This document shows, piece after piece, positions 9,280-50,050 of a DNA stretch of 64,000 nucleotides. The DNA is taken from positions 26,571,537-26,635,536 of the forward strand of contig NC_057719.1 in NCBI RefSeq assembly GCF_004010195.1. Reading direction: 5' to 3'. The notes beneath the pieces are model-generated. The model saw only the letters and a list, made by a program, of their open reading frames with translations, did no database searches and had not been told where the DNA came from. The stretch is from Chiloscyllium plagiosum. Its lineage: Eukaryota. A program made the position numbers and the translations under genes. How positions within the stretch are numbered: position 1 is the stretch's first letter; every line of letters begins with the position of its first letter.

Positions 9280-10850
9280 ACTCAAAAAGGGAAAAAGGCA
9301 GAATGTGGGTAACTATAGGCTGATTAGCCTAACTTATATTATTTGAAAAAATTGGATTCAGTTATTAAGGAAGTAATAGCAGAACATATAATGTAATCAA
9401 GCAGAATCAGTATGGATTAATAAAAGGGAAATCATGTCTGACTAATTTTTAGTTTTGCGAGTCTCAACCAGAGTGGATAATAGGGAACCAGTAGATGTGT
9501 TGTAATTGGACTTCCAGAAGGTATTCGACAAGGTACCTTATGAAAGCTTAAGTCATAAGAACTAACTATGTTGGAGGTAATATATAGGAATGCATAGAGA
9601 ATTGATTAATTGGTAGGAATCAACAAATGGGGATTAAGGGGTTCTTTTTCAGGTTGGTGACCTGTAATCAGTGGCGTTCCATCGGTGCAGGGACTGTAGC
9701 CATTTACAGTATATATTCATGACTTGAAAGAAAATGAATATACTGTAGCCAAATTTGCAGATGACACAAAATTTGTTGGAAGGGCAAGCTATGAGAGGAA
9801 TACAAATAGTTTCCAGAGAGCAATTGATAGGTTAAGTAAGTGGCAAAAATTTGGCAAATAGTGTAATATGGGAAAATGTGAAGTTGAAAAGTGTGTTGCT
9901 GGAAAAGCGCAGCAGGTCAGGCAGCATCCAAGGAGCAGGAGAATCGACGTTTCGGGCATAAGCCCTTCTTCAGGCTTATGCCTGAAACGTTGATTCTCCT
10001 GCTCCTTGGATGCTGCCTGACCTGCTGCGCTTTTCCAGCAACACACTTTTCAGCTCTGATCTGCAGTCCTCACTTTCTCCAAAATGTGGAGTTGGTCATT
10101 TTGGAAGGGAGAACAGTATTATTTAAATGGAGAAAAATCTCAAAGCTGCAACATAAAGATGCTTGGGAGTACTTGTGCATAAAATATAGAAAGCTTGCAT
10201 AGATTGTGAAGCAAGAAATTAGGAAGACTAATGGAATGCTGGTGCTTTATTTCATGAGGGTTGGAGTAGAAGAATAGGGAATTCTCACGGAGCTAAAGGT
10301 GTTGTTGGTGAGACTACATCTGGAGTATTTGAGCAGTTTGTCTCCTTATTTAAGGAAAGGTATTAATTCATTGGTGACGGTTCAGAGAAGATTCTGTAGG
10401 ATGATCCCTGGTATGGAATGATTGTCTTATGAACAAAAGTTAAACAGGTTGGGACTCTATTCACTGGAGTTTAGCAGAATAAGATGTAATCTTGTTGAAA
10501 CATAGGATTCTTAAGAGGTTTGATAGGGAAAATGTTAAGAGGCAGCTTCCCCTCATGGGAGAATTTAGGACCAGAGCACATTGTCTCAGAATAAAGGGGT
10601 GTCACTTTAAGATTGAAATGAGGAATTTCTTGGCTGAGGGTTGAGCCTATTCCTCCACAGCTCTCTGTGGCAAGGAGTTCGAGTCCTTATGTATATTTAA
10701 GGCTGAGAGTGTTTCTTAGATACCAGGGGGTGAAAGGGAAAGGCCAGGAAAATTGATGTGAGGAATGTCAGATCATTCATGCTCCTGTTGAATGGCTGGG
10801 CAGGCAAAGGGGACTGAACGACCTTCTCCTGTTCCTTTTTTTTTAAATCG
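9280..10850 (+). mobile_element. Old CR1 LINE RT/3' fragment, interrupted by a Penelope-like hairpin
   Basis: ttggacttccagaaggtattcgacaaggta (LDFQKVFDKV), gccaaatttgcagatgacacaaaa (AKFADDTK), CR1-type 3' region. Confidence 0.85.
9887..10080. mobile_element. Penelope-like-derived fold-back microelement (family A)
   Basis: Inverted arms gtgtgttgctggaaaagcgcagcagg / cctgctgcgcttttccagcaacacac; TSD aaaatgtg(a/g)agttg at 9873-9886 and 10081-10094. Confidence 0.8.
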
Positions 10851-11604
10851 TCTTTTAAGGTCCTCTCTATAGCCCTGCTTTTCCAGTCTTTGATTTCTAC
10901 TCGGTTACTTAAAGCATGCCAGGTTTATCAACAATTTCCTAGATTCTCTCTGGACAGGCTAATTAGTAACTTTGGTACATACCTCTGGACCAAGTAGGAC
11001 TTGAACCAGGGGACTATTAGCCCAACAGTAGGGATGCTATCATAGTACTACTACATTCTCACCAGCAGTTTCCGAATAAACACGTGAATATACAGTATCA
11101 AACATCTTCGACTGTGACTTTAGTGGTTTGCATTTTCCTCACATTGATTAGGTAACACCCTAACTGAACACCTGTTAAATCCCAATGAACAAGATATATT
11201 TGGGTTACCAATTAGCATAATTGCTGAATTCTGGAATATTGTAATCACATCTTCCAATTACCATGCATATTTGAAAATATGTCTGACAACCTGTGAAGTT
11301 GCTTGAACCAAAACCTGCATTGTTAATATACTTTATTAAACCATATTTAGCATTTGCAGTATAGCCCTTACATTATTGATACATGACAAAAGGCATGTAA
11401 TATTTAAAATTTGTTATTTATTCTCTAGATTTGGCATCTTTGGTAAAGCTATTATTTATTCCTTATCCTTGGTTTCCCTGAAAAAAAATGGTGGGCAGCC
11501 TCCTTGAATCACTGCAGTTTGTGTGGTGAATTTACTTTCAGTACTGTTTCAGGAATTTGACTCCTTTATGATAAAGGGATGATAATGTATGTCAAATATG
11601 TGCA

Positions 11605-12030
11605 TGTCAACAACATTGAGTTCAACAACTTGAGACTTTACCTTCATTTTGGGTTATGTGTTTCCCCTCTCAAAGTGTCTACCTTGCTTTCCTGTTCTTG
11701 CTTTCTGTCAGGGCTGACCTTTTATTCTCTTATTTACAACTATTTTGGGCCAATATTTTCTCTTCTCGACAAGCCTTACCACTTGCTTTGCCTTTTTGTT
11801 CTGTGATCCCTTTGATCTCTAATCTCTTGAACATTTTCATGACTTTCCTATTTGTTCTACTGGCGCATTCCCTATTCCAAGAGGATTAAACCTGTTGCAT
11901 TTTCATCTCTCTTCAGTTCCCAAGAAGAGCCAAATAAGACTCAAACATAACTGTTTCTCACCGCAGACACTTCCAGGCCTGTTGACTTTCTTTAATGTTA
12001 CAGATGTTTTAGATCTGAAATATAAATAGG
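11605..12030 (+). mobile_element. Old Penelope-like element 3' end
   Basis: aacattgagttcaacaacttg (NIEFNNL) resembles the ORF C-terminus seen in the 42708 element, followed by a decayed terminal repeat. Confidence 0.45.
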
Positions 12031-12659
12031 TAATGTTTAGCTTTTATTGTGATGTATGTCAAGATGGAATGCGAGTTACTGTTCCTGTGCATCTGACTTT
12101 GCCTTTCTCAAAGGCACAAGTTGCAGATACTGGATTTGCTGCTGAAGCAGCTTCTGGTCAGTTGATGCATTCTCAGGATGTGTAATGGTCTCTGACAGTG
12201 ATCGTCATCAGTTGTGCAGGTCTAATGAGAATGAAAAGACAGTCAAGTATGACATTTCTGGTGAATTGACTTTGTTTGACCTGATAGCAGTCTATTGCCA
12301 TTTTACCAACTGGCTTAGGGGTATATGAATATGTATTCTCTAGCTTGTTGATCCAGTGACAGCTATACTGCGATACCCTTGCTGTAGCCTACTCCCTCCT
12401 AGCACTCCCTGCAACCATAGCAGTAGAGGGCTTGAATGTTTAGGCTAAAGCTTATGCACTAAGTGGTAACCAAGTGAACACTAAGCTTTTTGTTGTCTGA
12501 TGATCAATTATCAAGTATAGAAAATTAGAACTAAAATTAGAAACTTCAGAAGAATGCTGTACTGCATAGATATGTAACTTGTCAAGAATCGAGATTTTTA
12601 TCACGTGGAAGAAAGGATTAATTTGTCCCATTCTGTGTAGTTAATCTCTCAACTGTAAA

Positions 12660-13680
12660 CCAGGATTTAATGTTTTGAGTCCAGTGATTCTTCTTCAGAA
12701 CTGATAGCAGCTAGGAAAGTTATGCTTGAGGCATTGGTCATGAGGAAAGGAGTGATGGAGATGGAGCCCAGAGAGAACAAGAACACTGGTTAGGGAGACA
12801 GTGATGGATAATTTTTAGGTTAGATTCCCTACAGTGTGGAAACAGGCCCTTCGGCCCAACAAGTTCACACCAACCCTCCGAAGAATAACCCACCCAGACC
12901 CATTCCCCTACCTTATATTTACCCCTGACTAATGCACCTAACACTACAGGCAATTTAGCATGGCCAATTCACCTGACCTGCACATCTTTGGACTGTGGGA
13001 GGAAACTGGAGCACCCGGAGGAACCCACAGACACTGGGAGAATGTGCAAACTCCACACAGACAGTTGCCTGAGGTGGGAATTGAACCCGGGTCTCTGATG
13101 CTGTGAGGCAGCAGTGCTAACCAGTGAGCCACCGTGCTGCTCCATTTTCCAGGGAGAAGGAAAAGCTGATAATAGGGATCATAAGTAGATGAAAATAGGT
13201 TAGCTGTACTGAAAGCAGCACTTATCATGACAGGGTGTAGGGTGAGCAAAGTATGTTGAAGAAGATGTTCAGGCTCTAAAATTGTTGAACTGGATATAAA
13301 ATCCTAAAGGCCATATGGAAAATTCTTTAAGAAACAATTTCAGAAATTGCTGAAAAAACTCAGTAGGTCTGGCAAATCTGTGGAGAGAAAGCAGAATTAA
13401 CGTTTCAGGTCCGGTGACCCTCCTCCAGAACTGATGTACCAACATTTTCCTTTCTAAAATCTCTTCTGAAGAATGGTCATTGGACTCAAAATATTAAATT
13501 TGCTTTTTCTCCTCCACAGATGTTTTTTGTTTTATTTTGTTTTGTTGTTTTTTTCTAGTTTGTCCTGAGCCTCACGCACTGCAACAGACCCGAGGCAGAA
13601 ATATTGGCTGGAAAATAGGGTGCTGCATTGAAATGGCAAACTGCTGGAAGCTTGGGGTCATTTTTACCCTGATGTGTTTG
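12660..13680 (-). mobile_element. Old Penelope-like remnant hosting a SINE (12818-13138) and an old hairpin element (about 13344-13520)
   Basis: Terminal motif ttcttcttcagaactg; inverted pair aacgtttcaggtccggtgaccctcctccagaac / ttctgaagaatggtcattggactcaaaat. Confidence 0.45.
12818..13138 (-). mobile_element. HE1-like SINE, full length
   Basis: tRNA-like head (gcacggtggctcactggttagc...ccgggttcaattcc on minus strand) and LINE-like tail. Confidence 0.88.
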
Positions 13681-14530: not shown

Positions 14531-15639
14531 CCACAACAAGCCCTTTTACTGTTCAGCATATGGTTCTGTGTTGCAAATTCACCAGGTTGGCATCTCACTG
14601 AGATATTCACATAGCATACTCTGCTATACCATTCAATGAACCTGTGTTGATCACCTGGCTAGATAGTAATGGTAGAGTGAGGGATATATCAGACCATGAC
14701 GTTATGGATTCTATTGCTGCTCTCAGCTTCTCATTAATGCCCAGTTTATACAAGCTATTCCATTGCCAATAATAGTAGTACCACATTGCATAATGGAGTA
14801 TAATAAAGCTAAGAACTGCAGATGGTGGAAATCTGAAACAAAAACAAATCGTTGGAAAATCCCGGCAAGTCTGGCAGCATCTGTGCAAAGAAAGCAGAGT
14901 TAATGTTTTGAGTCCGGTGACTCTTCAGAACATAATTGTCAGTCATGATTGTATGTGGAGAGGACTCGATGGGCCAAGTGGACTAATTTTTTTCCTCCTA
15001 TGTCTTGTGGTTTTATAATTGAGTCAGTTCTAAATATGAAGGAGGGATTTTGTTTCCACAAATGGCTTGTGTGGTGTTCACTCTGACCAGAACTATCCTG
15101 GAAAGATTTGCTTGACTGGTGAGAACCATGTGAAGTAGAATTTTATATCAATCGATTTATTTTTAATTTTTTTTTTCCCAAGTCAAGGCTTATATATTTC
15201 CAAGTTTGATGCAGCAATGTACAGCTCTATTTTGAGTTCTTGTAATTTAGCAATTTTTGGTGCTATTGAATATGCTTCACTTGATGAGATGCTATGTACC
15301 TGATGGAAGGCTGTTTGCCTTCTAGAAGACAATCTGTTAAGAATCTGTTCCAACTACAGCATCCACCCTTTCACAAACTATGACAGTTTATGCTTCCACT
15401 CTCCTATCTGGAAGTACATTGCAATTCTTTTCTTAATTTGTTTTGATGTAGGTGATCTATCTAAAATCAATGCTACTTGTCTGTCTCATGTTGTCCTGAG
15501 AACACCTTAGTCATCCACATTATCTAGAGTTGGAGTCACTTATAGGCCATATTGGATAGGGGTGATGGTCAGTGCAGAAGTTAAGCCAAATTATACTTGC
15601 ACTGCTAGTATGTACTAAAGTAAAAATGTAATCAGAATC

Positions 15640-15797
15640 TAGATTAGAGTGGTGCTGGAAAAGCACCACTCCTTCATTCCTGATGAAGGGCTTTTGCCCA
15701 AAACGTTGATTTTCCTGCTCCTTGGATGCTGCCTGACCTGCTGTGCTTTTCCAGCACCGCTCTGATCTCTAACATCTGCAGTCCTCACTTTTGCCTA
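15640..15797 (+). mobile_element. Penelope-like terminal fragment (older family A variant) with mutated hammerhead core
   Basis: cctgatgaagggcttttgcccaaaacgttg followed by ggatgctgcctgacctgctgtgcttttccagc...ctgcagtcctcacttt. Confidence 0.7.
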
Positions 15798-17871: not shown

Positions 17872-19105
17872 ACCATAAGGTAGAGTAGCAGAAATAGGCC
17901 ATTCAGCCCATCAGGTTGGTCTGCCATTCAATCATAGCTGATATGTTTCTCAACACCATTCTTCTGCCTTCTCCCTGTAACCCTTACTAAGCAAGAATCG
18001 ATTTATCTCTGTTTTAAATACGCTCAACAATTTGGCCTCCAGTGTCCTCTGTGGCAATGAGTTCCATTGTCTGGCTGAAGAAATTCCTCCTCATTGCAGT
18101 TCTAAAGGGTCATCCCTTCACCCTGGGTCCTAATATCTTCTTCTAGTAAAAGTATATTTTCTCCCTGTCCACTCCATCCAGATCTCTCCGTATTCTCACC
18201 TTCAATGAGATCCATTTCCCCCCATCATCTTTTTGAACTGAGTACAGACCCAGATTCTTCAACCGCTCATCATATAAGCCCTTCATCCCAGGATTATTCT
18301 TGGAAACTTCCTGTGAGCTGCCTCCGAGTCTAGAACATCCTCCCTTCGACTGGGGCCCAATACTGCTCACAATATTCCAAATACAGTCTGACCCAAACCA
18401 TCTGCAGCCTCAGCCGTACATCTCTGCTCTTATTTTCTAGCTGTCTTGAAATGCATGCACATTGCCTTTGCCTTCCTCAGCACCAACTGAACCTGCATGT
18501 TAACTGTAAGAAAGTTCTGAACTAGGACTCCCAAGTCCCTTTGCACTTGAGATTTATGAAATCTTTCCCCATTTAGAAAATAGTCTACACATCATCTTAC
18601 CAAAATGTATAACCTCTTACTTTGCCACACTTGTATGTCATCTGCCAGTTCTTTGCCCACTCATCCAGCATGCCTGAGGCCTTCTGCAGCCTCTCCTCTT
18701 CCTCCTATCTTAGTGTCTCCTACGAACTTAGCAACAATGCCCTCAGTTCCTTCATCCAGATCATTAATGTGTAACGTAAATAGCTGTGGTCTCAACACTG
18801 ATCCCTGTGGAACTCCACTGGTCATTAGGTGCAATCCTGAAAAAAGATCCCTTTTATTTCTGGCTGTCTGCAAGAAGCCCAGTCCTCTATCCATTCCAGT
18901 TCCTTGCCCCTAATGCTGTGAGCTCTTATTTTAGAAGCCTCTCATGCAGCATCTTGTCAAAGACCTTCTGTGAATCCAAATAGATCATGTCCAATAGCTG
19001 TCCTTTGTCTAACTTGCTCATTACCTCTCAAAATTCAAACAGATTTGTCAGGCATGACTTCCTCTTGACAGAGCTGAGCTGACTCTGCCATATTTTATTA
19101 TGCAC
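17872..19105 (-). mobile_element. CR1 LINE RT/3' fragment
   Basis: ORF 18661-18894 SGVPQGSVLRPQLFTLHINDLDEG...KFVGDTKIGG; CR1 3' tail near 17875. Confidence 0.88.
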
Positions 19106-28349: not shown

Positions 28350-28605
28350 CAAAGTTTGTGCGAAGATTTGTAGCTCTGGTGCTCGTTGTTGTGGTTCTGT
28401 TCGCCGAGCTGGGACCCAATATACCAACCATTACAGCGGACAGCTGAAACTGACAACCGGAAGCGGCAGGGACAGGCCACTATAAACACCGGAGGAAACA
28501 TCAAAGAAGCGCTTCGCAGGAGGCTCCCAAGCACTGATGATGTCGCCTAGCCAGGGGACGAAACGTTTGCAACAAAAACTTCCAGCTCAGCGAACAGAAC
28601 CACAA
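28350..28605. mobile_element. Penelope-like-derived microelement (family B) with short inverted ends and hammerhead
   Basis: TSD cagaaatagaatt at 28337-28349 and 28606-28618; inverted ends gttgtggttctgttcgccgagctgg / ccagctcagcgaacagaaccacaac. Confidence 0.8.
28531..28570 (+). ncRNA. Minimal type I hammerhead ribozyme motif (PLE type)
   Basis: GCA-CUGAUGA-U-GUCgCCU(AGCC)AGGgGAC-GAAAC-GUU-UGC: intact core, stem II hairpin, stem I GCA/UGC, palindromic AAACGUUU stem III. Confidence 0.7.
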
Positions 28606-29456: not shown

Positions 29457-31282
29457 TTCTGGGTGTGTGCTAGTTCCTGAACCATGCAGAAAGAACATTA
29501 GAAATTTGAGGGAGTAGTCTAGGCAACCTAGATTAAATTTGAAAGGTTTAAAGCAAAGTATTTTTGACAGGTGGGTTATGGGTATTAGGAGTAAATATCA
29601 AGTATGAAGTTCTCCGATTAATTTTTGATGGTAAATATCAAAGGTTTAAATCAAACCTCCACTGTAAGAAAATAGGATGCCTTTATTCAGAATTCTGGAA
29701 GTAGCATGGAAAGCCCACAGGACCTTTTGGGATTCATAGGAGTGAGGTTGATCAGAAACTCGCATGGAAAATACCAGAGATAAAATTGTAGCTTAACTAC
29801 AGTGATGAAGCTGGAGGTAAACACTGCTGTGATTGCAGCAGGGGTGACTAAAATTAGAGATAAAGGTTTCTTCTTCTCTGCATTGAAATTATTCCACTAA
29901 ACTGTAGCTTTATTAAGGAGCACGAGCTAAAGATGTTTTTGCTGGAGAGGACATATTTCTCCTTTTGGAGAATTCAAAGAAAGCAAAAAGGATAAGTTAT
30001 ATCCTGGTTCTCTTGCCCAAAATGCAATTAGTGAGACTTGTTCTCCAGAACAATGGAAGGAGGGGTTGCTTAAAAAAAAATTCCCTGTGGACAAAATTGA
30101 CTGGCTGAAGTGAAGTTTATAGCTTTGCCCATAATCTCAAAATCCAAGTGAGGTTAAAGATACAGCAGTTTTACTGCAACCAGTTTCTGGTATTTTTCTG
30201 GTCAAGCAGCATCTGTGTAGAGAGAAGCAGCATTAATGTTTCAAGTTTGACTTTTCAGAACTAAACTCTGTTTAACCCTGATTCTCTCTGCAGATGCTGA
30301 CAAACCTGCTGAGTTTCTCGCACTGTTGGTTTCAGACCTCCAACATCTGCAGTGTATTGACTCTGTTCAGGAATTTGTTGTTCTCATTATCATACACAAC
30401 AGCGACTGAGTAAATTTCATTACCAGGCATCAAAGCATTACCACAAAAAGATGTTAAAATAGCTGATTCAGAGATAAATTGACTCAGTCAGCTCACACTG
30501 AAGCAGAGGCGGACTAAGATCGAGTGGTATTGTATTAGAAATGGAGATCTGATGAAAGAGTGGGAACATTTTTATATTCTTCCAGATAAGCAATGGACAG
30601 TTCACCTGATAGTGGTACTGTAAAATTTAATAATGTGATATTGAGTAGCGTTAATAGGTTTTTATGGCAAGATGTGAATTTGAAAAAGCTATGCATCAGT
30701 AAGCAGAAATTTTACCAGGTCAGGCCTCCATTTGGGTGTAATGTAATTCTATAAAACACACAATATATCAGACAGTTGGGAAACAAACTTAATTTGCAAG
30801 TTGGCTATAAAACAGTTGAAGTGCATTCATGAACATGGTGGCTTCAGAGAAATCTTCGGACTCTCAACGATCATGAAGGGTAATTGTTTTGCATACTTAC
30901 ATGGTTGAAAAAAGGGTTAGATTTCTTAATTTGCTGTAAAAGACTCCCCAGTTAAATCTACTGGGTTTAGTTCATTTAAATTGATGTATAGTCCTGAAGT
31001 AAGAGGTCCATTAAAACTGATCATGAGAACATAGTTCAAAGTGATCATGAGAGATGGCAAAAAATTTAGCGTTGTTTATAAGGCAAAAAGACAAATCCTC
31101 AAAACATTGAGAATTACATGTCCCATGTTTTCAGAGAGACAGGAGTGTGTAAAGTAGCATGGGAGTGTTTAAGAAGTTGTGGAGCTGAAAAAAGCACAGC
31201 AGGTCAGTCAGCATCAGAGGAGAAGGGGAATCAACATTTGAGGACTGGTGAAAGGTTCTGACCTGAAACATCAACTCCCCTT

Positions 31283-32425
31283 TTGGATGTAGGTTTGCTT
31301 GCTGAGCTGATAGGTTGATTTCCAGATGTTTCATTATCTTACTAGGTAACATCTTCAGTGGACTTTATGCAAAGCAATGCTGAAACTTCCTGCTTTCTAT
31401 TTACATGTTTGGGTTTCTTTGGGTTAGTGATGTCATTTCCTTTGGTGATGTTATTTCCTGTGGTGAAGTCACTTCCTGTGCCTTTTCTTCGGGGGTGGTA
31501 GATGGGGTCTAACTCTGTTTGTTGATAGAGTTCTGGTTGGAATGCCATGTTTCTAGGAATTCTCGTGCATGTCTTTGTTTGGCTTGTCCTAGGATGGATG
31601 TATTGTCCCAGTCGAAGTGGTGTNNNNNNNNNNNNNNNNNNNNNNNNNNNNNNNNNNNNNNNNNNNNNNNNNNNNNNNNNNNNNNNNNNNNNNNNNNNNN
31701 NNNNNNNNNNNNTAGTGTTTGTTACAGTCCTTGCACGGTATTTTGTAAATGACATTAGTTTTGCTCATTGCCTGTATAGGGTCTTTCAAGTTCATTAGCT
31801 GCTGTTTTAGTGTGTTGGTGGGTTTGTGGGCTACCATGATGCCAAGGGGTCTGAGTAGTCTAGCTACCTGAGTAGTCAGCTAATGAACTTGAAAGACCCT
31901 ATACAGACAATGAGCAAAACTAACATCATTTACAAAATACTGAGCAAGGACTGTAACAAACAATACATTGGACAAACAGGCAGAAAACTAGCCACCAGGA
32001 TACGAACACCAACTAGCCAATGACCCTCTCTCACTAGTATCCTCACATACGGATGAGGAAGGACACCACTTCGACTGGGACAATACATCCATCCTAGGAC
32101 AAGCCAAATAAAGTCGTGCACAAGAATTCCTAGAAGCATGGCATTCCAACCAGAACTCTATCAACAAAGAGTTAGACCCTATCTACCACCCCCTAAGAAA
32201 AGGAACAGGAAGTGACTTCACCACAGGAAAGAACATAAAAGGAAATGACATCACCAACCCAAAGAAACCCAAACATATTAATAGAAAGCAGGAAGTTTCA
32301 GCATTGCTTTGAAAGTCCACTGAAGATGTTACCTAGTAAGATAATGAAACGTCTGGAAATCAACCTAATCAGCTCAGCGAGCAAACCTAAATCCAAAACC
32401 TCAACCTGAGCTACAAATCTTGCTA
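31283..32425. mobile_element. Penelope-like element: two GIY-YIG 3' halves in inverted orientation (family B-related)
   Basis: Plus arm LMNLKDPIQTMSKTNIIYKILSKDCNKQYIGQTGRKLATRI (GIY-YIG); minus arm NVIYKIPCKDCNKH; TSD atcaactc(c/t)cctt at 31270-31282 and 32426-32438; contains N gap 31624-31712. Confidence 0.88.
32316..32357 (+). ncRNA. Minimal type I hammerhead ribozyme motif (PLE type); mirror copy at 31321-31362 on minus strand
   Basis: UCCA-CUGAAGA-U-GUUACCU(AGUA)AGAUAAU-GAAAC-GUC-UGGA: intact core, GUC triplet, 4-bp stem I, ACGU palindrome. Confidence 0.7.
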
Positions 32426-34582
32426 ATCAACTCTCCTTCTCTGCTGCCTGACCTGCTGTGCTTTTACCAGTTCCATTCTTTATCAGCTTTGACTCATCAG
32501 CATCTCCAGTTCTCACTATCTCCAAGGTTTAAGTTCACAGGCAAAAATGAAAAAAATGGACAAACATGCTGCAACTGGAACACTGTAAAAAGGAAACCAA
32601 GTATTAGTGCAATTACTATTGCAAGATGAACCTTGTGAAATAGTTAGGCAGATTTACAAAGTGACTTATCTCGTAGGTGCTCTGGATTGTAGAAAGAAGA
32701 ATCTGTCACATAAACATGTTAAACATGCTGGAGAGGAAGATGAGACAAAGCAAGTGTGTAAAGTGGTAAGAGTAGTGAAGGTTGACAAAGTCAGTGAGTG
32801 AAATAGGAGAGGCAGATAGTTCACAAAGTAAATCTCCCATAATCTGATTAACAATAGTGAAATATTGGGCAGTTATACATTAGTATTTTTGTACTTAGAC
32901 CTAGTAAGATTACTGAGGAAATTCAAGGTAATCTGTACAGGTACACCAAGATGTACAATGTAAGTGAGGCATGATATACGTTTATCAGAATCAATACCAA
33001 TAAAATGACATTCTTATTGGTAAAGCTTTGGTGGGAAAGAAGATTAAATACATTTTTGAATATCAACTGATTGAACCTAGCCAGTCACAAAAAAGCATTC
33101 ATACTATATTTCTCAATTAGATTTGGCAGTGTTTCATTCCTTTCTAAGATCGATCTGTTGAAGGTGAACTGGTAAATAACATTAACACCAAGAGCTAAAG
33201 AAATATTAGTGTTTGTTACACCGAAATGATTATTCGACGTCAAGATCATGCTATTCCAGTTTAAAAATGCGTTCCGAAGACTTGTGAATCAAGTTGTAGC
33301 TAAAGTGCTTAATTTTGTAAAATGATGTCATTAGTATAAAGTAACACTTCGAAAGCAATTAAAAGATCTGTTTAGGGAATTACAATTGGCTGGTTTAATA
33401 ATGACTCTTGCCAAGAATGAATTAATAAAATAGTAGTTAATGTTGGTGTACTGGGGATAGATTCAGACTTATTGCAGGTAATGAATCAACAAAAGAGACA
33501 TTTTTAAGAAATTTAACCAAAATTGGAAGTACTACTGTATAGTGGAAATGGAGATGTTTGTTAGTTATTGGCTCCAAAGCATTTTCAAGTCTGTGCCTGA
33601 CCTAGTTGCTGAACAACATTAATGTATACTGACTGTAATCCACCAGCTTTATGGAGAAATTTAAGACTCTGCAAAATTGTTCTGGTGAACCTCTATTGAT
33701 TCAACGATTCACAGTAAAAATTGTTCATTTTGCTGAAAAAGTTGATGTAAAAGTAGGCATGCTCAAAATGATCAATTGAAATAGTTAAGGGTTTGAGAGG
33801 AAAATGACAAATTGATGAAATTCTGCATAATGGAATGTATGAGGGCGATTTTATTTTGTATTGTGTGTTATGTTTACAAGTGATACATTTAAAACAGTGT
33901 GTAGTCTGCCTTAAGGGTGGTGATGTTTAAGGAACCATATAGTTTCCTTTTTGGACTGTAAACTAAACAGGAAGTTGGATTAGCATATATAGCTGAGATA
34001 GATGGAGAGTTTTGTAGCTTGGAAAAAGTCAAATAGAAATCATTTTAGTGTGCAAGAGATTGTTGCTATTTGAAGCAGTGAGATTTTTATTTTAGAAGGA
34101 ATGGCACAAAGTGATTTTAAGTCATCTAAGTACTCACACATTTGTGATGAAGTGTAATGGTGCAGGAAGTTGGTCACACACACACACAGAAGGCTTACCT
34201 GGTTGATTCCACATTAATCCAAGCTGTAGCAACAGTCTGTTTCAGTTCGTTTCCCCTCCTCCATTACTCATAAGGCATCAGAACTGAATTTTTTTTAGCT
34301 CTTATGTACAGATTACTAACTTTGAATCATAACTATTAATTCCACTTTCTCAATGTGCTGCATTTTTTGCTAAACCACTGAGCTTTTCTTTTGTGTATGC
34401 CTTCACTACTTAATTTACCCAACATTTATTCTTTTAGCGAGTGGGGAGAAATTTGTGAAATCAACAAGAAATGATGGCTGAAAACAGACCCTTTCAAAAT
34501 TGATTTTTTTTTTCTGGTATTTTTGCATTTAGAAGTGAATGTTTTTTTTTTACCCTTTTGTAATTTAACTTATCTATTTCAG

Positions 34583-36636: not shown

Positions 36637-39277
36637 ACATAGAGCCTGTACGGTGCTGTACTTTTCTATGGCCCACGATGTTGTGCTGAGGATTAATCCT
36701 AATCTAAAATAAAATAACCTAACCTCCGCACTTCCCAATTCACTGCTGTGCATGTCCAGCAATCACTTAAATGTCCCTCATGACTCTGCTGCTTCCACCA
36801 CCACCGCTGGTAATGCATTCCATGCGCTTACAACACTCTGCGTAAAGAACCTACCTCTGATGTCTCCTCTATACCTTCCTCCCAACACCTTAAAACTGAT
36901 CTCTCATGGCAGTCAATCCTGCCCTGGGAAAATTCTCTGACTATCGACTGTATTCATGCTTCTCATTACCTTGTACATCTCGATCAGGTCACCTCTCTTC
37001 CTCCTCCTCTTCAGAGAGAGAAATCTGAGCTTAGTCAACATCTCCTCAAGACAAGCCTTCCAGTCCAGACAGCATCCTGGTAAAACTCCAATGTACCCTC
37101 TCCAAAGCCTCCACATCTTTCCTATAGTAGGGCGACCAGAACTGGACACAATATTCCAAGTGGAGTCTCACCAGGGTCTTGTAGAGCTGCAGCAAAACCT
37201 CGTGGCTCTTAAACTTGATCCTCCTGTTAATGAAAGCCAAAACACCATATGCTTTCTTAAAAACGCTATCCATTTGAGTGGCAACTTTGAGGGATCTATA
37301 TACTTGAACACCAAGGTCCCTCTGTTCCTCCACACTGCCAGGAATCCTGTCTCTAATCCTATATTCAGCATTCAAGTTCAACCTTCCAAAATGCATCACT
37401 CCACATTTATCCAGGTTGAACTCCATCTGCCATTTCTCAGCCCATCTCTGCATCCTGTCTGTCGTGCTGCAGCCTGCAATAGCCCTCAACACTATCGATG
37501 GCACCTCCAATCTTTGTGTCACTGGCAAATTTACTAACCCAATCCTCAACCTCCTCATCCAAGTCATTTATAAGAACTGTAAAGAGCAGAGGCCCAAGAA
37601 TAGAGCTCTGCAGGACACTATTCACCATTGACCTCCAGGCAGAATACTTTCCATCTACTAAAACCACTCTCTCTGCCTTCTGTCAGCCAACCAATTCTGA
37701 ATCCAGACAGCCAAATCTCCCTGTAACCCATACCTTCTGACTTTATGAATGAGCCTACTATGGGGAACCTTATCAAATGCCTCGCTGAAGTCAATGTACA
37801 CCACATCCACTGCTTGAGCTTCGTCAACCTGTCTCCTCACCACCTCAAAGAACTTCATAAGATTTATGAGGCAAGACCTGCCCCTCAAAGCCATGCTGAC
37901 TGCCTTTAATCACGCTATGCTTTTCCAAATTGTAATAAATCCTATCCCTCAGAATTCTTTCCAAAACCTTGCTGACCACAGACATAAGACTCACTGGTCT
38001 GTAATTGCCAGGGATTTTCCCATTTCCCCTTCTTGAAAAGAGGAACAACGTTTACCTCCCTCCAATCCTCCAAGACGACTCTCGTGGAGAGTGAGGAAGC
38101 AAAGATCTTCGCCAGCGGCTTAGCAACCTCCTTTCTTGCTTCCTGGAGAAACCTAGGATAAATCTGGTCTGGCCCTGGGGCCTTATCAATCTTAATGTTT
38201 GCCAAAATTTCCTGCACCTCAACTTCCTCAATCTCTATCTGTTCAAGCCTGTTTCCCTGCTCCTCAAAGTTCTCATTCACAACAAGGTTCCTTTCTTTAG
38301 TGAAAACCAAAGCAAAAAGCTCATTTAGGGCTTCCCCTATCTGCTCAGATTCCGTGCACAACTTCCCTACAATATCCCTGATCGGACCGACCTACTCCCT
38401 GATCATTCTCTTATTTCTCACGTATGCATACAACGCTTTTGAGTTCTCCCTAATCCTTCCTGCCAAGCCTTTTTCATGCCCCCTCCTGGCTCTCCTCAGT
38501 CCATTTCTGAGCACCTTTATTGTAAGCCTGTAATCGTCTAAATCTGTGCTTTCTCCCTCCACCTTACGTAAGCTGCCTTGTACCTTTTGACTCCTCTGTT
38601 CTCATCATCCAAGGCTCCTTAATCTTACCCCTTCTGACCTGTCTAGAGGAACAAATTTGTGCATCACTTGCAGCAACTGCTCCTTAAAGAGTCTCCACAT
38701 CTCTATGCCCTTTCTGTGGAACAATTGCTCCCAATCTGTACTTCCCAACTTCAGTCTGATAGCGTCATAGTTTCCTTTGCCCCAGTTAAATATTTTCCCT
38801 TGGTAACTGCTCCTTTCCATCTCCATGGCTATGGTAAATGTGAGGCAGTTGTGGTCACGGTCACCAAAGTGTTCTCCCACTGTGAGATCTGACAGCTGTC
38901 CTGGCTCATTGCCAAGCACCAAATCCAAAATGGCCTCTCCTTTTGTCAGCCTGTCTAAATACTGAGTAAGGAAACCTTCCTGAACGCACCTGACAAAAAC
39001 TGCTCCATCCAAACCATCTGTACTAAGGAGATTCCAGTTGATATTGGGAAAGTTGAAGTCACCCTTAAGAACAACCCTGCTACGTCTGCACTTTTCCAAA
39101 ATCTGCTGGCCTATGAGTTCTTTGATCTCCCTAGAGCTATTAGGGGGGTCTGTAGAAGACCTGAAAATGTGTTGCTGGAAAAGCGCAGCAGGTCAGGCAG
39201 CATCCAAGGAACAGGAGAATCAACGTTTCGGGCATAAGCCCTTCTTCTGGTCTGTAGAAGACCCCCGATGAGGTGAC
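36637..39277 (-). mobile_element. CR1 LINE ORF2 (EN C-terminal part, RT, 3' tail)
   Basis: ORFs with GDFNFPNINW, ILDLVLGNEPG, EHFGDRDH, KAPGPDQIYPR, YIDFSEAFDKVPH, KFASDTKIGG; frameshifted. Confidence 0.93.
39162..39248 (-). mobile_element. Family A Penelope-like single-arm insertion
   Basis: tgaaaatgtgttgctggaaaag...gggcataagcccttcttc; TSD ggtctgtagaagacc at 39147-39161 and 39249-39263. Confidence 0.82.
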
Positions 39278-40300
39278 TATAAGACCATAAGACATAGGAG
39301 CGGAAGTAAGGCCATTCGGCCCATCGAGTCCACTCCGCCATTCAATCATGGCTGATGGGCATTTCAACTCCACTTACCCGCATTCTCCCTGTAGCCCTTA
39401 ATTCCTTGTGACATCAAGAATTTATCAATTTCAGCCTTGAAGACATTTAGTGTCCCAGCCTCCACTGCACTCTGTGGCAATGAATTCCACAGGGGAAAGT
39501 GAGGTCTGCAGATGCTGGAGATCAGAGCTGAAAATGTGTTGCTGGAAAAGCGCAGCAGGTCAGGCAGCATCCAGGGAACAGGAGAATCGACGTTTCGGGC
39601 CCACAATGAATTCCACAGGCCCACCACTCTCTGGCTGAAGAAATGTCTCCGCATTTCTGTTCTGAATTTACCCCCTCTAATTCTAAGGCTGTGTCCACGG
39701 GTCCTAGTCTCCTCGCCTAACGGAAACAATTTCCTAGCATCCATCCTTTCCAAGCCATGCATTATCTTGTAAGTTTCTATTAGATCTCCCCTTAATCTTC
39801 TAAACTCCAATGAATACAATCCCAGGATCCTCAGCCGTTCCTCGTATGTTAGACCTACCATTCCAGGAATCATCCGTGTGAATCTCCGCTGGGCACGCTC
39901 CAGTGCCAGTATGTCCTTCCTGAGGTGTGGAGACCAAAACTGGACACAGTACTCCAAATGGAGCCTAACCAGAGCTTTATAAAGTCTCAGTAGCACAACA
40001 GTGCTTTTATATTCCAACCCCCTTGAGATAATTAACAACATTACATTGAATTCCATCAACCATTTCCTGGACCACTCCTCCAAACTGTCTAGATCCTTCT
40101 GCAGCCTCCCCACTTCCTCAGTACTACCTGCCTGTCCACCTAACCTTGTATCGTCGGCAAACTTCGCCCAGTCCCTTCTTCCGGATCATTAATATATAAT
40201 GTGAACAGCTGCGGCCCCAACACTGAACCCTGCAGGATACCGCTTGTCACCGGCTGCCATTCCGAAAAAGAACCTTTTATCCCAACTCTGTCTCCTGTCA
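39278..40300 (-). mobile_element. Second CR1 subfamily (ataagacc tail), internally deleted, nested in the 36637-41050 CR1
   Basis: Tail ataagaccataagacataggag; ORF 39364-40113 LYKALVRLHLEYCVQFWSPHLRKD; GILQGSVLGPQLFTLYIND. Confidence 0.88.
39494..39603 (-). mobile_element. Family A Penelope-like single-arm insertion including tail
   Basis: ggaaagtgaggtctgcagatgctggagatcagagctgaaaatgtg...gacgtttcgggc; TSD caatgaattccacagg at 39478-39493 and 39604-39619. Confidence 0.82.
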
Positions 40301-41476: not shown

Positions 41477-41571
41477 GTAAGCAACCTCACACCTAATTAT
41501 TAAGCTTAGTTACAAATTCATAGAATTCTGATTCTTTTCTGATTCTTTTATTAATTCGTAACATCAAAATT

Positions 41572-41900
41572 TAGATTACATTACATTAGATTACATTACA
41601 GTGTGGAAACAGGCCCTTCGGCCCAACAAGTCCACACCGACCCGCCGAAGCGAAACCCACCCATACCCCTACATGTACCAACACTACATGTAATCCCCTT
41701 ATCCAACACCTACAGGCAATTTAGTATGGCCAATTCACCTGACCCTGCACATCTTTGGATGGTGGGAGGAAACCGGAGCACCCGGAGGAAACCCACGCAG
41801 ACACGCAAATCCACACAGTCAGTCGTCTGAGGCGGGAATTGAACCCGGGTCTCTGGCGCTGTGAGGCAGCAGTGCTAACCACTGTGCCACGGTGCCGCCC
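41572..41900 (-). mobile_element. HE1-like SINE, full length, young
   Basis: gggcggcaccgtggcacagtggttagc...ccgggttcaattcccgcc on minus strand; (taatg)n-like tail; CpGs retained. Confidence 0.9.
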
Positions 41901-42707: not shown

Positions 42708-44199
42708 TTGAAAATGTGTTGCTGGAAAAGCGCAGCAGGTCAGGCAGCATCCAAGGAACAGGAGAATTGACGTTTCGGGCATAAGCCCTTCAGGAATGAG
42801 GAAAGTGTGTCCAGCAGGCTAAGATAAAAGGTAGGGAGGAGGGACTTGGGAGGGGCATTGGAAATGCAATAGATGGAAGGAGGTCAAGGTGAGGGTGATA
42901 GGCCGGAGTGGGGTGGGGGCGGAGAGGTCAGGAAGAAGATTGCAGGTTAGGAAGGCGGTGCTGAGTTCGAGGGATTTGACTGAGACAAGGTGGGGGGAGG
43001 GGAAATGAGGAAACTGGAGAAACCTGAGTTCATCCCTTGTGGTTGGAGGGTCCCTAGGCGGAAGATGAGGCGCTCTTCCTACAGCCGTTGTGTTGCTATG
43101 GTCTGGCGATGGAGGAGTCCAAGGACCTGCATCATCTGTGGCATCCGCTGCCCCGATGTGGCCTCCTCTATGTTGGGGNNNNNNNNNNNNNNNNNNNNNN
43201 NNNNNNNNNNNNNNNNNNNNNNNNNNNNNNNNNNNNNNNNNNNNNNNNNNNNNNNNNNNNNNNNNNNNNNNNNNNNNNNNNNNNNNNNNNNNNNNNNNNN
43301 NNNNNNNNNNNNNNNNNNNNNNNNNNNNNNNNNNNNNNNNNNNNNNNNNNNNNNNNNNNNNNNNNNNNNNNNNNNNNNNNNNNNNNNNNNNNNNNNNNNN
43401 NNNNNNNNNNNNNNNNNNNNNNNNNNNNNNNNNNNNNNNNNNNNNNNNNNNNNNNNNNNNNNNNNNNNNNNNNNNNNNNNNNNNNNNNNNNNNNNNNNNN
43501 NNNNNNNNNNNNNNNNNNNNNNNNNNNNNNNNNNNNNNNNNNNNNNNNNNNNNNNNNNNNNNNNNNNNNNNNNNNNNNNNNNNNNNNNNNNNNNNNNNNN
43601 NNNNNNNNNNNNNNNNNNNNNNNNNNNNNNNNNNNNNNNNNNNNNNNNNNNNNNNNNNNNNNNNNNNNNNNNNNNNNNNNNNNNNNNNNNNNNNNNNNNN
43701 NNNNNNNNNNNNNNNNNNNNNNNNNNNNNNNNNNNNNNNNNNNNNNNNNNNNNNNNNNNNNNNNNNNNNNNNNNNNNNNNNNNNNNNNNNNNNNNNNNNN
43801 NNNNNNNNNNNNNNNNNNNNNNNNNNNNNNNNNNNNNNNNNNNNNNNNNNNNNNNNNNNNNNNNNNNNNNNNNNNNNNNNNNNNNNNNNNNNNNNNNNNN
43901 NAAATCCCTCGAACTCAGCACCGCCTTCCTAACCTGCAATCTTCTTCCTGACCTCTCCGCCCCCACCCCACTCTGGCCTATCACCCTCACCTTGACCTCC
44001 TTCCACCTATCGCATTTCCAACGCCCCTCCTTCCTACCTTTTATCTTAGCCTGCTGGACACACTTTCCTCATTCCTGAAGAAGGGCTTATGCCCGAAACG
44101 TCAATTCTCCTGTTCTTTGGATGCTGCCTGATCTGCTGCGCTGTTCCAGCAACACATTTTCAGCTCTGATCTCCAGCATCTACAGTCCTCACTTTCTCT
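42708..44199. mobile_element. Penelope-like element family A, long inverted form with GIY-YIG remnants
   Basis: Left arm (minus) MQVLGLLHRQTIATQRL*EERLIFRLGTLQPQGMN; right arm (plus) begins IRC..RCGLLYVG; TSD tcctttagagg at 42697-42707 and 44200-44210; N gap 43179-43901. Confidence 0.85.
44071..44107 (+). ncRNA. Hammerhead-like core in family A terminal repeat
   Basis: CUGAAGA-A-GGGC(UUAU)GCCC-GAAAC-GUC; stem I is weak in this copy. Confidence 0.5.
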
Positions 44200-44759: not shown

Positions 44760-46670
44760 TCACTAAAATAGGAGGCATCGTGGACAGTGAGGAAGGTCGT
44801 CAGAAACTGCAGCTGGACCTTGATCAGATGGGGAAGTGAGCCGAGAAATGGAAAATGGTGTTTAGAACATAGAAAAGTACAGCACACAACAGGCCCTTAG
44901 GCCCACGAAGTTGTGCTGAGACTTAATCCTAATATAAAATATAGTAACTTAACCTACGCACACTTCAACTCACTGCTGTCCATGTTCATGTCCAGCAGTC
45001 ATTTAAATGACCCCATTTGCTTCGCTTCCACCACCTCAACTGGCAATGCATTCCATGCATTCACAGCTCTCTGCGTAAAGAACCTCCTTTATACCTTGCT
45101 CCTAATATCTTCAAACCATGACTTCTCGTACCAATCAATCCTGCCCTGAGGAAAAGTCTCTGGCTATTGACTCTATCTATGCCTCTCATTATTTTGTACA
45201 CCTCAATTAGGTCTCCTCTCTTCCTTCTCTCCAGAGAGACGTCTGAGCTTATTCAATCTCTCTTCATAAGGCAAGCCCTCCAGCCGAGGCAGCATCCTGG
45301 TAAACCTTCTTTGCACCCTCTCCAAAGCGTCTATCTGCCCTATAGTAGGGCGACCAGAACTGGACACAATATTCCAAATGTGGTCTCACCAGGGACTCGT
45401 AGAGCTGCAGCAAAACCTCACGGCTCTTAAACTCCTGTACTTCCAAAATGCATCACTTCGCATTTATCCAGGTTGAACTCCATCTCGCATTTCTCAGCCC
45501 AGCTCTGCATCCTGTCTATGTCGCGCTGCAGTCTGCAGTAGCCCTCTACACAATCGACAACACTTCCAACCTTTGTCATCTGCAAATTTACCAACCCACC
45601 CCTTGACCTCATCAAAGTCATTTATAAAAACTACAAAGGGCAGAGGCCCAAGAACAGAGCCCTGCGGGACTCCCCTCGATACTGTCCTCCAGGAAGAATA
45701 TTTTCTATCTACAACCACTCTCTCTGCCTTCTGTCAGCCAACCAATTCTAAATCCAGATAGCCAAATCTCCCTGTATCCCATACTTCCTGACTTTATGAA
45801 TGAGCCTACCATGGGGAACCCTATCAAATGCCTTGCTGAAATCCATATACACCACATCCACTGCTCTGTCGTTGTCGACCTGTCTTGACACCTCCTCAAA
45901 GAACTTTAATATAGATAAGTGAGAGATTTTGCGTTTTGGAAAATCAATTCAAGATAGGAGAGAATGTTCAGGCCTTTGGGAGTATAGTGGAATATAAGGG
46001 TCTTGAAGTTGAGGTCCACAGTTCTCTGACCGTGGAGTCACAGGTAGATAGGACAGTGATGAAGGCTTTTGGCACACTGGCCTTCATCAGTCAGGGCATT
46101 GAGAAGTTGGGGAGTTATGTTGCAGTTGTACAGGACATTGGTAAGGCCACACTTGGTGAATTGTGTTCAGTTTTGGTCACCATGCTGTAGGAAGGATGTT
46201 ATTAAACTGGAAAGAGTGCAGAAGAAATTTATAAGGGTGTTGCCTGGATTCAAGGGACTGAGTTATAGAGGTTGGACATGTGTATGACTCTTTTTTTCTT
46301 TAGAGTGTAGGAAACTGAGGGGTGATATTATAGCAGTGTATAAGATCATGGACAGGGTGAATGCATTCTCTTTTTTTTTTTCTCAGGGTTGGGGAATCAA
46401 GGGCTAGAGGGCATCAGTTTAAGATTAGAGGGGAAAGAATAAAAGGGAACCTGGGAGGCAACCTTTTTACACAGAGGGGTTGGAATGCATATGGAATGAG
46501 CTGCCAGTGGAAGTGGTTGAAGTGGGTACTTTAACAACATTTTAAAAGGCATTTAGACAAACGTGGATAAGAACAACTTAGAAGGGTACAGCGGAATGGG
46601 GTTAGCGTTGATGAACATTTTAGTCATATCGGCTAGTTTGGGCCTGTCTCCGTGCTGTAGAACTCTTTAG
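44760..46670 (+). mobile_element. CR1 3' fragment interrupted at 44863-45906
   Basis: gacagtgaggaagg...ctggaccttgatcag...atggtgttta resumes as atatagataag; MLQLYRTLVRPHLVNCVQFWSP; tail near 46660. Confidence 0.82.
44863..45906 (-). mobile_element. CR1 RT/3' fragment, same subfamily as 36637, nested in a + strand CR1
   Basis: GVPQGSVLGPLPFVVFINDFDE...KFADD; 3' region matches 36640-37200. Confidence 0.9.
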
Positions 46671-46677
46671 AATCAGA

Positions 46678-47022
46678 GAATCATGGAAACAGGCCCTTTG
46701 GCCCAACAAGTCCACACTGACCCTCTGCAGAGTATCCCACCCCAACCTATTTCCCTACCCTATTACTCGACATTTATCCCTGACTAATGCACCTAACCTA
46801 CATATCCCTGAACGCTATGGCCAATTCACCTAACCTGCACATCTTTGGATTGTGGGAGGAAACCGGAGCACTTTGAGGAAACCCATGCACACACTGGGAG
46901 AATGTGCAAATTCCACACAGCCAGTCGCCTGAGGCTGGAATTGTTTCCGGGTCCTTGGCTCTGTGAGGCAGCAGTGCTGACCGCCAAGCCGCAGTGCTGA
47001 CCGCCAAGCCACCGTGCCGCCC
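46678..47022 (-). mobile_element. HE1-like SINE with a 20-bp tandem duplication in the tRNA head
   Basis: gcagtgctgaccgccaagcc repeated twice at about 46972-47010; body matches the other SINE copies. Confidence 0.85.
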
Positions 47023-47850: not shown

Positions 47851-48814
47851 ACCTACATTTAAATGAAACTGCCTCAAAAGTAGGCTACTGCGTTTTACCC
47901 TTTGCCCAACTATACAGGAAATTCTTTATCCAAGATTTGCACATGGAGTTATGCCCAATATATCCTTCATTTCTGATGTTCGACCTTATTACTGATGTAA
48001 AATAAAAGAGACTGATTGTAAACAGTTCAGTTCTGAGTTCTCAACTGCAGCCAGATATTTACATGCTTTAAATAGGTTCAAGAATTTATAAACGGCTGTA
48101 ACTGGCTTTTTAGAACACTTCTTTGCAGTGGCCTGAAGGGGTCAGGCGATGTTAAACACATTACTGTACTCCAAGTATTACAGGAATAGGCATTGCATTA
48201 TTTAATAAATTACTTGTATAACATGTCTCTTACAGTGCATTGATTCAGTTTCTTTTCTCTTTGCTCTGAAATTTTGGAGGGTGGGGCTGGGAAGGAAATG
48301 GAAGCGGGGGAAGTAAATGAGCTGTGTGGACTGGAGAGTTGTCCGCAATATATCATTGCGATTCTGTGGTTGTCTTTCTAAGACTTTAAGTTCTAAAACA
48401 ATTGATAGTTAAGCTGACTTATTTTACACATTTGTCACACGTGCTTACAGAAGTGGCCTTGAAATGTTGATGAATTTATATCATTGTGGTTTTCTAATCC
48501 AGTGCTCTCATTCTGCTGGCCTTACTTGGCACAGTTGTATGTACTACAACGTGTAGATGTGAAAAGGGAGGTCGTCTTTTTGATTTTTGTCAAACAAGGC
48601 CAACATAAGCATCTGCAGTTTGGTGAAAAAATGCCTGAAATGTTTAAAAATGTGAGCATTGAGCTACATGTAGAAGATGATGACTCTTTTAATTGGAACT
48701 GTTTCTTTTTATTTGATATCAACACTTTATTAATAAAGTTCTCGGAAAAATTGTAGAGTATTGTATACGTTTAAGGCTGTGGTGGATAAGCATTCCTTTT
48801 GTTTTTGTTGACAG

Positions 48815-48923
48815 TATAATAAATGGGTTTGCATTGCCCCTGAAGGCTGAACACAAACAATTTCTGATTAAGGTTCTGCTCCCTTTGCATACTGTGAGGA
48901 GTTTATCACTTTTCCATGCACAG
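48815..48923 (+). CDS. PPP2R5E: B56 epsilon-type coding exon (109 nt)
   Basis: tgacag|TATAAT...GCACAG|gtagga; (S)[36 protein letters not shown]. Confidence 0.95.
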
Positions 48924-49863
48924 GTAGGAATGTTACTTGATTTACTTATTTTTCTAGTGCTAGATTATTCAGATTGAGATTGCTCATGTCCAGAGGTGTA
49001 AGTGACCATTGATACCATTCATGTGTGAAATTCTGCCATAAACGGCAGACATGATCATTCCCATTTCACTTAAGTCTCCATTTTGCAAAACAGTTTACAT
49101 TATTTTCTCCTTTCAAAGGCTATAAGTCTAACCTCCTCCCAAGTAGAGGAGAGCATGAGTTACTGCTATTTATATTTTGTTTTGACAATCTTTAGCAGTC
49201 TTTTGATTGTCAACAGATTTTCTAACTGTTTGAATAGTTTGTTAATGTTCTTTGACAGCAAAGCATAATCTGTCCTTTGAATTCATTCAATCCTATTTGG
49301 CTGCAACTTATCCTCAGGTCATTTGCAACGAGAACAGGGTCTATTATGAATTTTTCCAGTCATAAACATGTGCAGCATTTATCTTTGTGTTCCATGGTCA
49401 AATGACTTTTTAAAGTATGTGACCTGGAATTTATTTGGAAAAATAATTTGTGAAATCAAACAGGATTTTTTTTTAGAAAATAAACAAAATGCCGTAGAGA
49501 AAATTCACAGGATCAATACAGAATAGATGCTGAGATGGGAAGTGGTGCCATGATTCTTGAGTTCCAAACAATCTTTTCATTTAATGGCAAAGCTGAATCC
49601 CTTGTTGCAAATTTGGAATGCTTAAACTGGTCCTTTTATGGTTCTGGCCAGCACTCATGTTATTTGTTGTTTTTCACCAATACTGTGTTTAAATTTATTT
49701 GATGTACTCAATCATCTCATGAATGTAAACTGAGATCAAGACTGATCAATCTTCCCATTGTGTCCTGCCTGTATCTTATAAAGGCAACTCTGGATGTTGG
49801 TTGAGGATATTCCCGTAATGAACTTAGTGCCACCAACCAAATGTAGGTTATGTCAAAAAGTTG

Positions 49864-50050
49864 AAAATGTGTTGCTGGAAAAGCGCAGCAGGTCAGGCAG
49901 CATCCAGGGAACAGGAGAATCGACGTTTCGGGCATAAGCCCTTCTTCAGGAGGGCGTCTCCTGTTCCCTGGATGCTGCCTGACCTGCTGCGCTTTTCCAG
50001 CAACACATTTTCAGCTCTGATCTCCAGCATCTGCAGACCTCACTTTCTCC
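49864..50050. mobile_element. Family A Penelope-like fold-back microelement, young
   Basis: Perfect inverted arms of about 55 nt; TSD tatgtcaaaaagttg at 49849-49863 and 50051-50065; minus-strand CUGAAGAAGGGCUUAUGCCCGAAACGUC. Confidence 0.85.

Follow-up and report, generated by a model that had tools for sequence, protein, structure and literature searches.

Introduction

Penelope-like elements (PLEs) have been described as inserting with an inverted truncated copy of themselves, a tail on one side only and a target site duplication (TSD) (Arkhipova 2013, PMC3846280; Craig 2021, PMC8557442). The minimal hammerhead motifs of metazoan PLEs were reported mostly as single motifs of truncated elements, with opposite-strand pairs 100-700 bp apart already noted (Cervera and de la Pena 2014, PMC4209133). 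The protein of the Poseidon element of the anole Anolis carolinensis (PAc), a predicted dimer, acts on both target strands, cutting and extending each; its two start sites lie on either side of the tail, and it requires the first 172 nt of the open reading frame (ORF), beyond the start sites at 111-118 (Frangieh 2024, PMC11167929). Non-LTR (long terminal repeat) retrozymes have been reported in one cartilaginous fish (Li, Clavereau, Pollet 2026, 10.64898/2026.07.22.740005). The available text of PMC8557442 and PMC11167929 does not settle by what mechanism PLEs form an inverted arm and a one-sided tail, and it is on this question that the locus described here bears.

The locus lies in a 64,000-nt stretch of the Chiloscyllium plagiosum genome (NC_057719.1, 26,571,537-26,635,536, forward strand, assembly GCF_004010195.1), hereafter the window, in whose coordinates all positions are given. 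It holds six insertions whose sequences support their identification as endonuclease-containing (EN+) PLEs of the Neptune and Poseidon types, with a third family recognized by architecture only. A preliminary description of the window had proposed that these insertions share one architecture and that their short forms are either extreme truncation products of fold-back priming or a self-propagating non-autonomous class. We find that the insertions are a well-formed example of the already published PLE architecture, and we propose, with a probability of roughly 0.62, that the mirrored unit is built where the element lands, with both ends of a staggered cut priming reverse transcription.

Results

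Six insertions with mirrored arms, a single tail and a target site duplication

We named the insertions A1, A2 and A3 (family A), B1 and B2 (family B) and C1 (family C). As the preliminary description had it, all six are TSD-bounded: direct repeats directly adjoin the element ends in every case, and when the scores were set against those of 2918 random position pairs, the lowest of the six was reached by just two pairs. In all six, the arms are inverted head to head and a tail of 29-39 nt, opposite an inverted copy that lacks it, is present on one side only. The TSD length is variable, as had been claimed, but the six span 11-15 nt rather than 11-16 nt, the 16-nt repeat belonging to a copy at 39492 that the preliminary description had not listed. 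Across eight young insertions, namely the six and two lone family A arms, the range is 11-16 nt (8/8).

Two palindromes of family A, of putative Neptune type, are short. A1 (9887..10080) comprises a tailless arm on the minus strand (9887-9974) and a tailed arm on the plus strand (9973-10080), which overlap by 2 nt; its hammerhead core is at 9973 (minus strand) and its TSD (9873-9886/10081-10094) has 14 nt with 1 mismatch, 8 exact. A3 (49864..50050) has a tailless arm at 49862-49951 (minus), a tailed arm at 49957-50050 (plus), a 5-nt filler between them, a core at 49949 (minus) and an exact 15-nt TSD (49849-49863/50051-50065). The long palindrome A2 (42708..44199) is flanked by an exact 11-nt TSD (42697-42707/44200-44210) and consists of a tailless arm at 42709-43132 (minus) and a tailed arm from about 43133 to 44199 (plus); its core is at 44075 (plus), the core of the left arm having a 3-nt deletion. 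A run of N at 43179-43901 falls within the tailed arm. The inversion point, at about 43132, lies upstream of this run, and there the C-terminus of a GIY-YIG domain on the minus strand meets an N-terminal motif on the plus strand. The N-run (723 nt) exceeds the protein-spacing need of a simple arm by about 450, which indicates a mis-sized gap or extra sequence.

The Poseidon-type long palindrome B2 (31283..32425) has a tailless arm from 31283 to about 31864 (minus), a tailed arm at about 31877-32425 (plus), cores at 31358 (minus) and 32320 (plus), an N-run at 31624-31712 and a TSD of 13 nt with 1 mismatch, 8 exact (31270-31282/32426-32438). Its centre holds a 9-nt filler that is a local duplication. 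In the Poseidon-related B1 (28350..28605), the tailed arm (28350-28412, minus) is a 39-nt tail plus 24 nt, and the tailless arm (about 28413-28605, plus) carries the hammerhead core (28534); the TSD is exact over 13 nt (28337-28349/28606-28618). An element facing its inverted copy is thus present in all six insertions, as proposed, but B1 is hardly palindromic, with an inverted stretch of 24-26 nt. The short palindrome of the third family, C1 (29256..29456), is bounded by an exact 12-nt TSD (29244-29255/29457-29468) and has a tailed arm from 29256 to about 29380 (minus), with the core at 29375, and a tailless arm at about 29381-29456 (plus).

Derived from the arm coordinates, the tails measure 30 nt in A1, which has a 9-nt deletion, 37 nt in A2, 37-39 nt in A3, 39 nt in B1, 29 nt in B2 and 37 nt in C1. 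The family A tail (44163..44199, plus strand in A2) is delimited by the tailless end at 44162/44163 and the tailed end at 44198/44199. Its end was also sought in public sequencing data, for family A only, by aligning contigs or reads to the right arm of A2. The DNA runs X1 and X2 (organism A) and X9 (organism B) were all used as contigs, with X2 read to 84% and joints in X1 and X9 counted incompletely; about 49,000-102,000 contigs aligned per DNA run, and neither this figure nor summed contig depth is a copy number. The raw RNA run X21, a single-cell poly(A) library, was read to 2%. The tail end is sharp in the DNA runs: unrelated flank follows 44198 in 1118, 1085 and 713 contigs. Contig depth of organism B on the right flank of A2 runs to 44220, with none past it, and the insertion may predate the species split.

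Coding remnants and family assignment

Coding sequence for the reverse transcriptase (RT) and GIY-YIG domains survives in the window as remnants, and a full ORF is absent from it. B2 retains RT-thumb and GIY-YIG remnants in both arms, which match the zebra shark protein P0001 (RVT_1, E 1.8e-8, and GIY-YIG) with 76-89% identity. In P0001 and in the left arm of B2, the thumb leads to GIY-YIG without a CX2-5CxxC linker. From these matches and the absence of the linker, family B fits the Poseidon type of the Penelope/Poseidon clade.

In A2, the tailless arm holds the C-terminus of GIY-YIG and the tailed arm an N-terminal remnant of the same domain. The left arm matches whale shark proteins, including P0015 (RVT_1, a CX4CxxC linker and GIY-YIG) with 65% identity over 51 aa. 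A CX2-5CxxC linker before GIY-YIG, together with a CCHH motif, is the Neptune criterion (PMC8557442); both occur in the nearest long proteins, P0015 and P0010, and the linker is absent from the window copy. By its protein matches, family A fits the Neptune type. These matches came from a profile-free HMMER search, a word-index search of proteins with a 43-aa fragment of family A having given none; exact-pattern scans of metagenome and viral contigs likewise returned 0 matches.

The arms of A1 and A3 are 84-94% identical to A2, and the short forms of family A are therefore tied directly to coding sequence. This is the part that stands of the proposal that the GIY-YIG remnants (A2, B2) link the short forms to PLEs; B1 and C1 are not tied in this direct way. 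B1 and B2 gave no blastn match at default scoring, and under relaxed scoring they are 68-72% identical in a stretch of about 70 nt at the hammerhead, with a resemblance of the tails, so we treat them as separate subfamilies. Families A, B and C are distinct, as had been described, with this split as an amendment. B1 keeps a TATAAA box (28481-28486) in its tailless plus-strand arm about 50 nt before the core, and an ATG where stem II begins opens a reading frame that continues through the arm (28537-28605), as in the anole element. C1 has neither a coding remnant nor a second copy within the window, and family C is assigned to PLEs by its tail, TSD and hammerhead. Taken together, protein matches, TSDs, tails and cores support the Penelope-like identity and the shared architecture that had been suggested.

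Hammerhead cores

A scan of the window for the strict CUGANGA-stem-GAAA pattern gave seven matches, six of them within five of the six elements, against a mean of 0.21 and a maximum of 2 in 100 shuffles. The predicted core is thus strict in 5/6 elements; that of B1, whose stem II is weakened, was recovered by a relaxed pattern only. A core had been claimed for every insertion, which agrees with this result, but its reported position near the element end does not hold for the short palindromes, where it is central. None of these holds more than one complete core, and several hammerhead copies in the window are damaged. The seventh strict match, at 12497, is A+T-rich, lies outside the recognized elements and is within chance expectation.

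An Rfam search of these sequences gave no hammerhead match at E<=1. Single-strand folds lack the active hammerhead shape, which is expected for dimer-type motifs and hence uninformative. Matches to Rfam microRNA (miRNA) families fall below the gathering score and reflect the palindromes; such stubs could be mislabelled as miRNA hairpins or as miniature inverted-repeat transposable elements (MITEs).

A proposed assembly of the mirrored arm at the landing site

We propose the following model. The element protein would cut both target strands 11-16 nt apart, leaving two 3′ overhangs. One overhang would prime at the distal start site and give the tailed arm, and the other would prime 30-40 nt upstream on the same RNA and give the tailless arm. 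The two complementary DNAs (cDNAs) would stop independently and then join centrally by 2-3 nt of microhomology or a short filler, and priming from one end only would give a single arm. A staggered cut with dual priming would account for the TSD, the head-to-head orientation, the single tail of each unit and arm lengths that vary independently. This agrees with the anole Poseidon protein, which acts on both strands from two start sites around the tail (PMC11167929).

The centres of the insertions bear on this model. There the tailless arm exceeds the tailed one by 10 nt in A1, 33 nt in A3, about 170 nt in B1 and about 60 nt in B2, and falls short of it by about 13 nt in C1 and about 165 nt in A2. 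The 2-nt overlap of A1, the 5-nt filler of A3 and the 9-nt duplication of B2 are what end joining would be expected to leave. Both arms of A1 carry variants that are absent from six other family A arms compared (0 differences versus 3-7), which suggests that they derive from one template. A perfect 15-nt TSD flanks the lone tailless arm at 39162-39248 and a perfect 16-nt one the lone tailed arm at 39492, so either end can be a primary insertion end. Among the 27 joint rows listed of 228 (15 of 75 and 12 of 153) from the public runs, three opposite-strand joints connect the region 44068-44076 to 44164-44166 and have a short side no longer than 34 nt; these may represent tail-only arms, a geometry that the data table does not itself give.

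The chief alternative, which we regard as unlikely, is fold-back or self-priming, whereby one cDNA, or an antisense RNA, folds and is copied back and endonuclease trimming leaves the tail on one side. The antisense-RNA version was proposed by Arkhipova 2013; the literature argues for self-priming (PMC3846280) and for endonuclease resolution of the tail (PMC8557442). The private variants common to both arms of A1 are in keeping with such a process, as are the short centres, which coincide with the stem II hairpin of the hammerhead, and an 8-bp hairpin at the end of an old copy (19101-19123). Fold-back of a tailed cDNA, however, demands that the unpaired centre continue the tailed arm; since the tailless arm is longer in 4/6, simple fold-back fits poorly. 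Fold-back of a tailless cDNA offers no way to make a tail. The perfect TSD on a lone tailless arm and the in vitro extension of both strands (PMC11167929) also speak against this alternative.

Several points weigh against dual priming as well. The resolved junctions number just six to eight, all from one window, and the public-run evidence rests on the listed joint rows of a single family. A later central deletion could shorten either arm and so mimic the asymmetry, and the variants shared by the arms of A1 are equally well explained by fold-back or gene conversion. Arms overlapping on one RNA would need strand displacement. The 8-bp hairpin already mentioned is perfect, terminates an old PLE arm on its 5′ side and resembles a real fold-back. 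Finally, equal start sites were seen on both strands in vitro (Frangieh 2024, PMC11167929), and because the strands do not differ in start site there, the one-tail rule is unexplained by those experiments. The genome is very rich in short TSD-bounded products.

A candidate RNA start may account for the short arms

In A1, A3 and the 39162 copy, the 5′ end that reaches furthest falls no more than 2 nt from the first base of the hammerhead core, and in C1 it lies about 5 nt before the core; in six arms of an older related group, mutual agreement stops 2-7 nt before the core. Copies 39492 and 61910, which end within or after the core, are exceptions. In A2, the sequence at 44069..44075 (plus strand), whose +1 A at 44071 is 4 nt before the core, is initiator-like in its resemblance to the Inr (initiator) consensus, and a T-rich TATA-like stretch at 44039-44044 occupies -32 to -27 relative to 44071. 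Depth rises about 3-4-fold across 44066-44088 in the DNA contigs and about 5-fold in the RNA reads. Heterogeneous flanks stand ahead of exactly 44071 in 141 contigs (X2) and 85 reads (X21), and this position is a recurrent 5′ end of genomic copies. In 7 of the 12 filler joints listed, representing about five forms whose kind is unstated, the sequence returns to 44071 or 44072, each time after a G, which is only suggestive of a capped end. Joints at 44102 were considered as hammerhead cleavage ends and rejected, a rare reference variant at 44103 breaking the alignments there.

In this model, the RNA would start at 44071, and many short arms would be run-off copies that end just before the hammerhead, primed at the start-site copy near the RNA 5′ end. 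We consider both the dual-priming and the run-off readings plausible. Stubs that end at the tail are probably not re-mobilised, because by analogy with the anole RNA, which requires a further 55 nt or so past the distal start site (PMC11167929), they lack a required segment. The first option of the preliminary description, extreme truncation by fold-back, is disfavoured by the longer tailless arms in 4/6 insertions, and random extreme truncation does not explain arms that end at the 5′ edge of the hammerhead.

On the other side of the balance for the run-off reading, the RNA of X21 shows no pile-up of molecule starts in the 2% of this single-cell poly(A) library that was read, and subfamilies that diverge upstream of the hammerhead could add to the depth step. 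B1 extends about 120 nt upstream of the core, past its own TATA-like motif, and the copy at 15641 possibly extends 14 nt upstream of it, 10 nt past 44071; neither resembles a run-off product.

A short RNA or a palindrome as a possible spreading unit

An alternative that shares the candidate start is more doubtful than fold-back. It holds that a non-autonomous RNA of about 130 nt, with the initiator-like site, hammerhead and tail, is transcribed from short copies in the manner of a short interspersed element (SINE), mobilised in trans and mirrored anew at each insertion. Short forms do far outnumber longer ones and have a preferred 5′ end, the promoter of Drosophila Penelope is internal (PMC8557442), non-autonomous PLE derivatives have already been described in the available literature, and the diversity of central junctions (below) does not touch such a unit. 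Against this, long copies carry the same core variants as short ones, the left arm of A2 and the lone arm at 39162 being identical over 57 nt; the TATA-like stretch is outside the short unit, on its upstream side; and the roughly 55 nt that the anole RNA needs past its distal start site are absent from the short copies. If true, this unit would constitute a dispersed non-autonomous PLE class of shark Neptune elements, distinct from tandem retrozymes.

The central junctions at 9887 and 49864 had been noted to differ, and this extends to all four in family A (A1, A2, A3 and the older 15641 copy; 4/4 different). Among the joints listed from the public runs, the best-supported reach depths of 9-135, and one reaches 632 (X9); set against about 14, 35 and 47 for the unique flank of the three DNA runs, this corresponds to about 1-14 copies, and no high-copy amplified joint is present among the 27 of 228 listed. 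A self-propagating palindrome with a fixed junction, for which shared junctions had been put forward as the test, is therefore not supported for family A. That short palindromes spread as fixed-junction, MITE-looking and RNA-mobilised units, or are MITEs of a DDE transposon, is highly improbable: some joints do recur across runs at few-copy depth, one at about 14 copies in organism B, and the genome-wide evidence is confined to family A, but the junctions of family A differ, TSDs vary over 11-16 nt, the ends are asymmetric, and the long forms carry GIY-YIG and match RT proteins.

Further copies and neighbouring repeats

Two lone family A arms, both on the minus strand and both additional to the insertions of the preliminary description, sit 240 nt apart: the tailless arm at 39162..39248 (TSD 39147-39161/39249-39263), which has no inverted partner, and a tailed arm at 39492..39603 with a perfect 16-nt TSD (39478-39493/39604-39619). 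The latter and the A3 arms have an identical 57-nt core and a different build. An older family A palindrome (15641..15791) has a short tailless arm (minus), a long tailed arm (plus) and a core at 15680. A second, A-related one (31173..32522) has arms at 31173-31239 and at 31245-31282 plus 32439-32522, and B2 is nested in it just past its hammerhead core, one PLE inside an element of another clade. No TSD was found for either; among old copies, the search was negative in all seven tried (7/7). Decayed PLE ends at 12657-12705, 13344-13521, 14812-14931, 19101-19210, 30207-30353 and 61910-61993 are 67-75% like family A; some are palindromic, and most start 2-7 nt before a degenerate core.

The window also contains an inverted pair of fragments resembling long interspersed elements (LINEs) at 18278-18420 and 19790-19980, separated by about 1.5 kb and 96% complementary over 77 nt, a dispersed SINE-like repeat of 300 nt (17-319, 1312-1524, 12815-13140, 41582-41898 and 46662-47020) and many CR1/L2-like RT fragments (for example 4874-5212, 6882-7893, 37355-38406 and 45442-45906). 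A1 interrupts one such fragment at 9640-9886.

Discussion

In LINE-1 twin priming, both target ends prime reverse transcription and an inversion joined by microhomology results. The model proposed here resembles it in the priming from both ends and in the microhomology at the joint. LINE-1 differs in that it inverts without duplicating and its second start is variable; in the shark elements the second start would be fixed and the arms usually overlap. No paper on PLE stubs in sharks, or on PLEs that use twin priming, came up in a literature search with incomplete coverage of subscription papers.

Animal non-LTR retrozymes (10.64898/2026.07.22.740005) are, like the short shark forms, non-coding, hammerhead-bearing and derived from PLE pseudo-LTRs. 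As described there, they are head-to-tail tandems with at least two hammerheads, whereas the shark short forms are head-to-head with at most one full core; the units in the window are head-to-head or single, and a few low-depth joints that go back were seen among those listed from the public contigs. The hammerheads of families A and B share with those described for metazoan PLEs (PMC4209133) an extra base before stem II and the palindromic positions after GAAA. The available text of that study names no shark, and the shark hammerheads presented here are sequence predictions.

A close biochemical counterpart is the anole Poseidon element (PMC11167929), whose tail is flanked by two start sites and whose protein cuts and extends both strands; as in B1 and B2, its hammerhead overlaps the beginning of the ORF. 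Family A is, unlike it, of putative Neptune type, and the available account of the anole element neither models the inverted arm nor reads short genomic copies as products of run-off.

The insertion unit of EN+ PLEs, finally, is matched in its principal parts: a head-to-head, 5′-truncated copy, a tail of 30-40 nt at one end and a TSD of variable length (PMC3846280; PMC8557442), as well as a hammerhead in the pseudo-LTR and a tail that overlaps the likely ORF start, here in family B. The shark units differ from those described in being mostly 90-260 nt long and without an ORF, and their TSDs of 11-16 nt exceed the 8-10 nt of the rotifer examples. The asymmetry of their centres speaks against the self-priming reading offered there.

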